A DNA stretch of 21,752 nucleotides. Source: a virus (Duplodnaviria; Heunggongvirae; Uroviricota; Caudoviricetes). The stretch is from IMG/VR virus record IMGVR_UViG_2529292985_000022; one strand, 5' to 3'. A program made the position numbers. Positions 12,001-15,000 of this stretch are shown piece after piece. Within the stretch, counting starts at the first letter, position 1. Every line of letters starts with the position of its first letter.

Positions 12001-15000
12001 GGGGGCAAAGGGAGATACGGGAGCTGCAGGCCCGGCAGGCGCACAGGGGCCAAAAGGTGACAAAGGCGATCCGGGAGTGGCTGGACCAGCAGGTCCGGCA
12101 GGTGCGCCGGGGCCGAAAGGCGATAAAGGTGATCCGGGAGTAGCAGGTCCAGCAGGTCCGGCGGGGCCACAGGGACCGAAGGGAGACATAGGAGCCTCCG
12201 GGCAAGGAACAGAACTGCTTACTACTGCCAATACATGGACTCAGGCACAAACTTTTAATGGTGGTATTAATGGCAATTTGACGGTGACCGGAAACGGCTC
12301 ATTTAACGATATTCAGATCCGTTCGGATAAACGCAACAAGCGAAATCTGGTAAAACTGGATAATGCGTTAGATCGTCTGGAGGCACTTACTGGTTATCTT
12401 TACGAGATACAGTACTCTGCCGACGGTTGGCAAACGTCGGTTGGTTTAATTGCTCAGGATGCACAAAAAGCATTGCCTGAACTGGTAACTGAAGACGCAG
12501 ACGTTATATCTGGTGAAAAACGTCTGCGTCTTAACTACAACGGCATAATTGCATTGTTAGTCGAGGGCTTTAAAACACTTCGTCATGAGATTAAAGAACT
12601 CCGGGAGAAGTAAACGACAGCTGTTGTAGTTTCTGGTTTCTACTGAATTTAAATTGTGGGGTGACACTCACCCCACGCATTCAGAAGGGGGAGATGAGAT
12701 GGGGGTAACATCGGGATGGGTAGGCTCTTCGGCTAAGAGCGAAACAGGTGAGCAGTGGATGGGAGCCGCCGGAACCAAACTGGGACTGAGTAAACCTTTT
12801 ATGATGAGCCAAATGGTTGGGCGAACTATGGGCTGTAAAATTGCAACTGAGTACTATAAATGGAAATCCTCTGACAAGGTTGATAACTGGGGCGCAGTTG
12901 GCGCTGACTGGCCTTTAGAAGAAAAAAGTAAAGGTACAATTACAAACGCCGCAAGCTGCGGATCAGGGAGGCTGGTAGGGGCTGTCGTTACACTTTCTCA
13001 CTTTTTGACGAACTCTACACCGACAGCTGCTGTTTATTTAGCCGGTGGTAAAGCAGGTAACATCACCGTAAACGTAGGTGGTGCTACACAAACCATGATT
13101 TATCAGGGCGTTGTTAGTGGGTTCCAGTATTACTGGTCAGGTTCTGTTAGTTCCGCTTTCGTGGAGGCAATGAAAAAGACGGGAGTACCCCAGGATCTAA
13201 AAATTAGTTAAATGGTAAATAAATAATTTTAAAAACTTCACGTTCTACATACCGGAGACGCCGGATATATAGGATATTGTTTTAAGTTGCCAGAGAAATT
13301 TTTCCGGACGGATGCTGATAATAATGATGTGCCAATGACGGCAGCATCATGGATGGCACTGAGTGAAGCGACAGAGCAGGCGATGTTTGCGAAGGGAGTG
13401 GAGATTAATACACGGCAGTTGCAGATGAAAGCCGAGGTTGAGGCGCTGACAGACCTGAAGGCGATCCGCAGTTATGTTGTCGGATGGCCTGCTGTCTGAA
13501 TAAAAAAACGGGACCACGACCAGTCCCGGAACCATGAGTTTTAGGGTATTAGTTTGTTATCATAGTTAGCGTGCTAAGTATGCCATGTCAGGTTGATTAG
13601 TGAAGTGATGTTGTTCGCATTTTTGCACGGCGGAGAATATTCAGATTTTTGGAAATCCATATTTTTCCCGTGCGCGATTACATGCTTCATTTACGATGCT
13701 ATTTTCGCCGGACATTGCGAATTCCCTGCATGTGGACGGTTTTTGTAAACAGAGCAATATGCGTTTTCTCCGGGGGGGGCCGGCAAGAGCGCCACATCGG
13801 GGATTTTTCTGATTGGTGCCGCGCATACAGCGATGAAAAGGAGATATTTGCTCAGTGAGACTGACCGAAACCTTTCCGCCAGCATCGTCAGCTTCTGCCC
13901 AGTAAAAAGAGACGCGGAAAATGCACAACAGGCACCACACGTCATGCATGGATTCAGATTGCTCATAATTCACCAGTACAGCTATAAATCGTAAAGAGAA
14001 CAGCGGTACATCGTATGTAAGAACGTACCGCGGCTGGCTGGTGAACTTCCGATAGTGCGAGTATTGAATGATTTCCATCCGTTACAGATTTTACGTGCTA
14101 ATTAGTGAACAAACCACTCGTCAGCAGACTCCCAGGTATCTTTCAGAGTTTCCTGAACAAAAGTTTTAGCTGAATCTTTATCGGCGGTGCGCGTAACAGA
14201 AAGGCCATCGTTGCTGGTAGCTTTTACGATCACCTCTACATCGTCATAACGTTTACTGATGCGTCGGGTTAATTCTTCCTTTAACGCATCCACAGCACCG
14301 GTTGGCATTTTAGTCATTTTTTCTTTGGCTATGCAGATTTCAATACGCATAAAAGTCCCTCTACACTGTGTTTGTATACAGTATCAATTTTAACTGTATG
14401 GATAAACAGTATCAAGGGTGAAGGAAAGTGATTTTTTGGGGCATGCATGGGGCAAAAATATTTGTTGTGGGGCATTTTGGGGCATGATTGGGACACTTTG
14501 TTACATATGAACTTTGCCGATTTTTATATGACATGGAAATACAACGCTTTGATTCTTCTAAATAAAAAACATGCTCTTGGGCGTTCTTTAGTGATTTTTA
14601 AAAATTCCGTATCACGCAGTTAAAGTGGCGGGCATACTCTTCAAGGCTGGTGATCCCCAACCGCACCCATTTAGGATGCGACCATTGCGGTAGACCGATG
14701 TAAATCATAACGCGTGAAGGATCTCTTCCACGCTACGCACACGGGCGATGCGCGGGTAGATATGATTAATGCTGTTATTGTGTTGCTCGGCGCTGGCGGC
14801 ACTACAGGCGTCTTCGGCAATCACCAGATTAAAGCCAAGTTCCCAGGCATTGCGGGCGGTGGATTCAACACCGATATTGGTCGAGATCCCACATAACACT
14901 ATTGTATCGATACCTCGGCGGCGCAGTTGCAACTCCAGATCCGTACCGTAAAACGCACCCCACTGACGTTTGATGATTTCGATATCACTGTCAGTTGCAC

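Follow-up and report, generated by a model that had tools for sequence, protein, structure and literature searches.

The minus strand of the stretch of DNA analysed here (21,752 nucleotides, in the following called the window) carries at 13641..13966 a 326-nt relic, whose source was a 330-nt, 109-aa YkgJ-family gene (Pfam CxxCxxCC). We are highly confident that this is a dead prophage paralogue of ykgJ, i.e., a gene disabled by three slippage indels whose poly-C/G run subsequently drifted in length, neutrally and without functional consequence. Judged from sequence it is a pseudogene, since its homology to an intact gene is clear and its disabling lesions are real rather than artefacts. The kind as such is already known, i.e., equivalent copies are already annotated as frameshifted in RefSeq.

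To count indels, we used as reference the intact 330-nt allele of E. coli LZHX12 (L003:3142-3471, WP_071528431.1), which matches PF03692 (CxxCxxCC) at E 8e-12. The alignment, a check that had been proposed along with the original prediction, shows the pieces to be homologous to one gene and reveals exactly three indels at 93% identity. The original prediction had placed a decayed YkgJ-like gene at 13641-13966, with at least three frame alternations taken as pseudogenisation and one frame switch at a G8 (13772..13779). These bounds are exact, the alternations are accounted for by the three indels, and the switch at the G8 coincides with a +1 change from C7 to C8. Given that the shifts follow each other as -1, +1 and -4 (the latter equivalent to -1), the native pieces alternate between two frames as listed below.

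13641..13966, minus strand: ykgJ-paralogue pseudogene, 93% identity to the intact allele, three indels; ATG at 13966, TGA at 13641..13643
13919..13966, minus strand: native piece 1, residues 1-16 including the CxxCxxCC motif, read from ATG 13966 (from translation and alignment)
13918..13921, minus strand: lesion 1, coding-strand T5 shortened to T4 (plus-strand A4), shift -1, from alignment to the intact allele
13780..13917, minus strand: native piece 2, residues about 17-65 including PRCGALAG, in the second frame, i.e., that of the 145-aa ORF
13772..13779, minus strand: hypervariable tract with lesion 2, coding-strand C8 (plus-strand G8) vs C7 in the intact allele, shift +1
13740..13771, minus strand: native piece 3, residues about 66-78, again in the first frame
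about 13734..13739, minus strand: lesion 3, one CCGT unit vs CCGTCCGT in intact alleles, shift -4
13641..13733, minus strand: native piece 4, residues 79-109 and stop codon, again in the second frame

Two overlapping minus-strand ORFs in two frames are found here, one of 91 aa (13691..13966) and one of 145 aa (13641..14078). Neither has a Pfam or NCBIfam match in profile scans. The CxxCxxCC motif itself is present (CMTCGACC, encoded in the frame of ATG 13966). In-silico repair of the three indels yields a 109-aa protein that matches PF03692 over positions 1-85/85 (E = 6.8e-11, 43.2 bits). On the aligned sequences, homology across alternating frames is far beyond chance, and we regard the relic as a member of YkgJ/PF03692 by descent, not as a functional member. 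No model was matched in an NCBIfam scan of both the intact and the decayed products, no relative with a solved structure was found in a PDB sequence search with the intact protein, and an Rfam scan that covered the entire window, with gathering thresholds applied, reported no RNA family. The G8 at 13772..13779 is the longest homopolymer of the 21.7-kb window and its sole G/C run longer than 6.

Decayed alleles were collected by tract-pattern scans of IMG/VR and metagenome contigs, from complete E. coli genomes and by exact-protein look-up. They originate from complete genomes (including E. coli 55989), IMG/VR, ENA metagenomes, NCBI drafts and Logan assemblies. All 31 decayed alleles share T4 and the single CCGT, and such recurrence across independently assembled alleles implies that the two lesions are not sequencing errors. 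Close copies found by megablast carry the annotation 'YkgJ family cysteine cluster protein', and near-identical RefSeq copies are labelled by PGAP 'YkgJ family cysteine cluster protein, frameshifted'.

We thus assign a negligible chance to the explanation that the gene is really intact and that errors of sequencing or assembly produced its frameshifts, or the G8 at the least. It is true that homopolymers are a classic site of miscalls and that some public assemblies differ in n, i.e., the length of the run, alone; homopolymer miscalls could account for some of these length differences, above all where an assembly is based on long reads only. A miscalled tract would, however, still leave two other frameshifts, which are shared by alleles from many independent projects and collections. 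Furthermore, the exact product of n=8 (the 145-aa ORF) is found on 19 contigs, several of them with flanks identical to those of the window. Independent assemblies from NCBI and Logan (L029, L030, L036, L037) likewise have n=8 between flanks identical to those of the window. The G8, for which a sequencing artefact had been considered beforehand, is therefore no one-off assembly error.

All three indels reside within short repeats, which is the signature of replication slippage. We infer that the gene was disabled this way, i.e., by loss of one T from T5, gain of one C in C7 and loss of one CCGT unit. The decayed class consists of two sub-lineages that are several substitutions apart (window type and 55989 type), and its alleles are located at different chromosomal sites, namely yecD/aspS, btsS, the tRNA-Ser next to hyaA, and paoD. 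Of the three lesions, T4 and the single CCGT are old, being common to both since-diverged sub-lineages, to different prophages and to different integration sites. The repaired proteins of the decayed class are absent from an exact look-up in a collection of 15 billion proteins, and a one-lesion intermediate (T5, C7, single CCGT) is likewise absent from the exact protein look-up. In the same collection, 998 contigs carry the intact C7 allele and 209 carry a further intact allele.

With regard to selection, dN/dS is 0.055 between K-12 ykgJ and the intact prophage allele, 0.07-0.14 between the intact allele and the repaired decayed alleles, and 0.56 between the decayed sub-lineages, where the latter value is based on small counts (Sd 3, Nd 6, i.e., nine substitutions only). 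In view of the few counts, this trend fits a constraint that may have been relaxed after inactivation. In the decayed allele of 55989, a conserved cysteine is lost (Cys->Ser).

Once the gene was dead, its poly-C/G run would have been released from selection for frame. From then on its length would drift by slipped-strand mispairing, and much faster than substitutions arise in the surrounding DNA. Based on unbiased scans and genome hits, the tract of the decayed class shows n=6 in 5 alleles, n=7 in 3, n=8 in 6 (plus one interrupted CCCTCCCC), n=9 in 4, n=10 in 1 and n=11 in 1, the last being E. coli 55989. The comparison across isolates that had been suggested for this tract thus returns the lengths 6, 7, 8, 9, 10 and 11 in decayed alleles with no more than 0-5 differences across their 930-nt flanks. 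Even where these flanks (tract excluded) show 0-1 differences, we find n = 7/9/11 (L028, L019, L025), n = 8/9 (L020, L026) and n = 6/7/8/10 (L013 vs L012, L031, L008). Since the length differs where flanks are near-identical, the tract changes much faster than point substitutions accumulate. Indel rates of E. coli are known to rise exponentially with homopolymer length, with 8-bp G.C runs being hot spots (PMC8510543).

Among the otherwise intact alleles (T5, two CCGT) of complete E. coli genomes, C7 is observed in 18/21 records. C8 is found in 2/21 (SHP24 and JNEC-KY204, both annotated as frameshifted) and C10 in 1/21 (S19-651, an intact 110-aa protein with one extra proline). Retention of C7 differs between intact and decayed alleles with a Fisher p = 7e-6 (relatedness not corrected for); C7 in 18/21 intact alleles vs lengths of 6-11 in decayed ones is expected if selection for frame acts only while the gene is alive. 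A third allele class, represented by 11 records, reads CACCCC and combines a -1 shift at the tract site with Cys7->Tyr. A long run is missing from K-12 ykgJ as well as from the most frequent intact prophage allele, which both read AGTPG here, such that the run arose by substitution in one prophage lineage. Since its origin, it has been a recurrent inactivation site. Scanning the GTDB species representatives with the tract pattern gave no match, and a literature search on the homopolymer or the pseudogene found nothing specific.

A phase-variable length of the G8 had been suggested as well. This stands in the mutational sense, i.e., the length varies between 6 and 11 among isolates, but it does not extend to a functional on/off switch. 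We rebuilt the window allele in silico with n = 5 to 11 and listed the resulting ORFs. The native 109-aa frame is recovered for none of these lengths. For n = 6 or 9, an ORF of 107-108 aa connects the native start and stop, but about 60 residues in its middle are out of frame, while n = 5, 8 or 11 results in a chimeric ORF of 144-146 aa. That is, a hypermutable tract (6-11) lies within the coding region as in a contingency gene, but no n from 5 to 11 yields a full functional ORF, which argues for a neutrally drifting slippage hotspot and not for a working phase switch.

It is thus very unlikely that the tract is a working phase-variation (contingency) switch whose poly-C length toggles a functional YkgJ-like protein, and for the window allele the rebuild refutes it. 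Beside being long enough for slippage, the tract does vary between near-identical alleles; C8 in the otherwise intact alleles of SHP24 and JNEC-KY204 represents single-frameshift 'off' forms, and the C10 variant, present on 9 contigs, represents an in-frame 'on' form. Against this stand the two further frameshifts of the window allele and of all 31 alleles of its class, as well as the predominance of C7 in intact alleles, which fits purifying selection against slips and not frequent switching. In addition, both K-12 ykgJ and the commonest intact prophage allele do without the run. A broader version places the switch into the intact alleles (C7 on, C8 off, C10 on), where poly-C would act as contingency switch on an SOS-controlled dinI-ykgJ transcript and the window allele would be its burnt-out end state. 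We consider this improbable. Phase variation based on SSRs is rare in E. coli; if true, a prophage-borne SSR switch in E. coli/Shigella would be an unusual example.

One could also ask whether n=8 encodes a new chimeric 145-aa protein (13641..14078), which would explain n=8 as the commonest state. We see hardly any chance for this protein, which would consist of an out-of-frame leader followed by the native residues 17-65 and 79-109. The shifts +1 and -4 sum to -3, so that for n=8 (also 5 and 11) the ORF spans two native segments up to the native stop, and gene callers report the 145-aa ORF on 19 contigs. Being the commonest length, n=8 could in principle reflect something other than ancestry. 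However, the chimera lacks both the CxxCxxCC motif and the conserved cysteine of YCSVY and has no Pfam/NCBIfam match. Its first 54 residues derive from intergenic DNA and the native N-terminus read out of frame, and no convincing Shine-Dalgarno precedes the ATG at 14078 in a by-eye reading. Closely related alleles have tracts of 6, 7, 9 and 10 without a sign of selection for 8, and the excess of n=8 is largely due to one clone-like group with identical flanks. Given the ORF rebuild and the missing domain match, we rejected the chimeric protein for the window allele.

The prophage that carries the relic is lambdoid and defective; the relic lies at its right end, flanked by tail-fibre genes on one side and by a dinI-like gene on the other. 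At lower coordinates than the relic, the window holds tape-measure and tail-tip genes, gpJ, an Ail/Lom gene, a collagen-repeat tail fibre, a Gp38-like adhesin and a DUF4376 fragment. The surrounding features are as follows.

6849..10322, plus strand: gpJ with an in-frame stop at 8196..8198
11048..12613, plus strand: tail-fibre ORF of 521 aa with collagen-like Gly-X-Y repeats at residues about 255-400
13509..13528, minus strand: terminator-like GC hairpin followed by a T run, 3' of the relic (consensus scan only)
13967..14159, minus strand: upstream DNA with the dinI-like 3' end, collinear with and ~84% identical to the K-12 ykgJ-ecpE intergenic region
14102..14350, minus strand: intact dinI-like gene immediately upstream of the relic (PF06183, E 1e-19)
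14366..14383 and 14394..14411, minus strand: two LexA-box-like sites, both perfect TACTGT-N8-ACAG
14387..14415, minus strand: promoter-like site of the dinI-like gene, sigma-70-like, 10/12
14705..15040: yecD 3' fragment of 111 aa, interrupted by the IS110-family transposase gene
15079..16275: IS110-family transposase gene (PF01548, PF02371), followed by aspS

The stop within gpJ splits the gene into same-frame ORFs of 449 aa and 707 aa, which are continuous in close relatives; the prophage is thus defective in more than one gene. The consensus scan predicts no terminator between the dinI-like gene and the relic, and the latter may for this reason be co-transcribed with the dinI-like gene under SOS control.

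Among the complete E. coli genomes of the collection, none spans at least 80% of the segment 12600..17000. Two draft assemblies at NCBI and several from Logan do show the arrangement of the window. Its nearest relatives (L012 and L013, 99.5% identity) have tracts of C7 and C6, respectively, and contain an extra 768 nt at window position 14655..14663 with a 9-nt alignment overlap; both the size and the target duplication are as one would expect for IS1. The equivalent prophage end adjoins an uninterrupted yecD in O104:H4 and L011. The O104:H4 C227-11 copy (L017 2640..2900) shows the T4 lesion in its 5' part together with an internal deletion. In its 3' half it does not differ from the intact C7-class allele (two CCGT), such that this copy looks recombinant between allele classes. 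In JE86-ST02 (L028 2640..4324), about 340 nt separate the start of the ykgJ relic from a tyrosine integrase, a DUF4224 gene and an exonuclease. These genes represent the left end of another lambdoid prophage, which fits integration of one prophage into another at the ykgJ-upstream attB (PMC8112680).

Homology to K-12 extends beyond the gene. The homologous segment, window 13657..14159 (about 84% identity), begins within ykgJ and takes in 193 nt of the intergenic region that separates ykgJ and ecpE in K-12. Within the ykgJ-ecpE region of K-12 (NC_000913.3; L039 5322..5446), we found a frameshifted dinI-like remnant (tblastn E 2e-5, small search), which together with ykgJ is collinear with the dinI-ykgJ pair of the prophage. 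Nakamura et al. 2021 (PMC8112680) describe prophage sequences that are 81-84% identical to the K-12 ykgJ/ecpE intergenic region and serve as secondary attachment sites. As proposed by these authors, phages acquired the homology to the ykgJ/ecpE region from the chromosome. The dinI remnant of K-12 suggests that the transfer may have run the other way, from prophage to chromosome, and that the ykgJ locus on the chromosome may in turn be a remnant of a prophage.

The relic carries little biological weight, being a dead cargo gene on the margin of a prophage in decay. In practice, the G8 is a length-polymorphic site (6-11) and a source of spurious differences in SNP/indel or cgMLST typing of close E. 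coli/Shigella isolates; it is best masked or treated as a fast marker.

The product of ykgJ is a 109-aa cysteine-rich, putative Zn/Fe-binding protein, and a transposon study reports that a ykgJ mutant filaments in biofilms (PMC8743551). The deposited phage genomes hold no complete close copy in an isolated phage, only gene fragments at the ends of Stx1a phages. They also include a 48%-identical 'putative ferredoxin' of an Acinetobacter phage.

Compared to known systems, the closest chromosomal counterpart is ykgJ of K-12 (b0288, NP_414822.1, 'putative metal-chelating domain-containing protein YkgJ'). It equals the repaired relic in length (109 aa), shares its CxxCxxCC motif and Pfam domain and is about 80-84% identical to the window at nucleotide level over the gene and 193 nt upstream. 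It differs in being chromosomal, intact and strongly constrained, while the copy of the window is prophage-borne and triply frameshifted. Where the lineage of the window has its C7/C8 run, K-12 ykgJ reads GGAACCCCGGGC (AGTPG). The window also resembles the attB-in-PP_2 region of lambdoid prophages described in PMC8112680, i.e., it has such homology at 13967..14159; that description concerns an att site (a 96-bp attB), while the present finding is the adjacent coding relic.

The intact prophage paralogues WP_071528431.1 (C7), WP_022581964.1 (no run) and WP_198798526.1 (C10) are, like the relic, located at the right end of lambdoid prophages beside a DUF4376 tail-fibre gene, with 93% nucleotide identity. 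They form continuous ORFs of 109-110 aa on hundreds of contigs, in contrast to the allele of the window with its T4, C8 and single CCGT. The RefSeq pseudogenes AC3XMD_RS08685 (cM8a), FVP48_RS10710 (NMBU-W12E19) and EC55989_RS29525 (55989) have the same T4 and single-CCGT lesions as the window. Their sole difference is the poly-C, which is 6, CCCTCCCC and 11, respectively, vs 8 in the window. Finally, the contingency loci of Campylobacter, Neisseria and Haemophilus likewise carry intragenic poly-G/C tracts, whose length is changed by slipped-strand mispairing such that the frame is shifted. There, the tract is the only lesion and acts as a reversible toggle, whereas in the window two other frameshifts are present and every tract length is 'off'.
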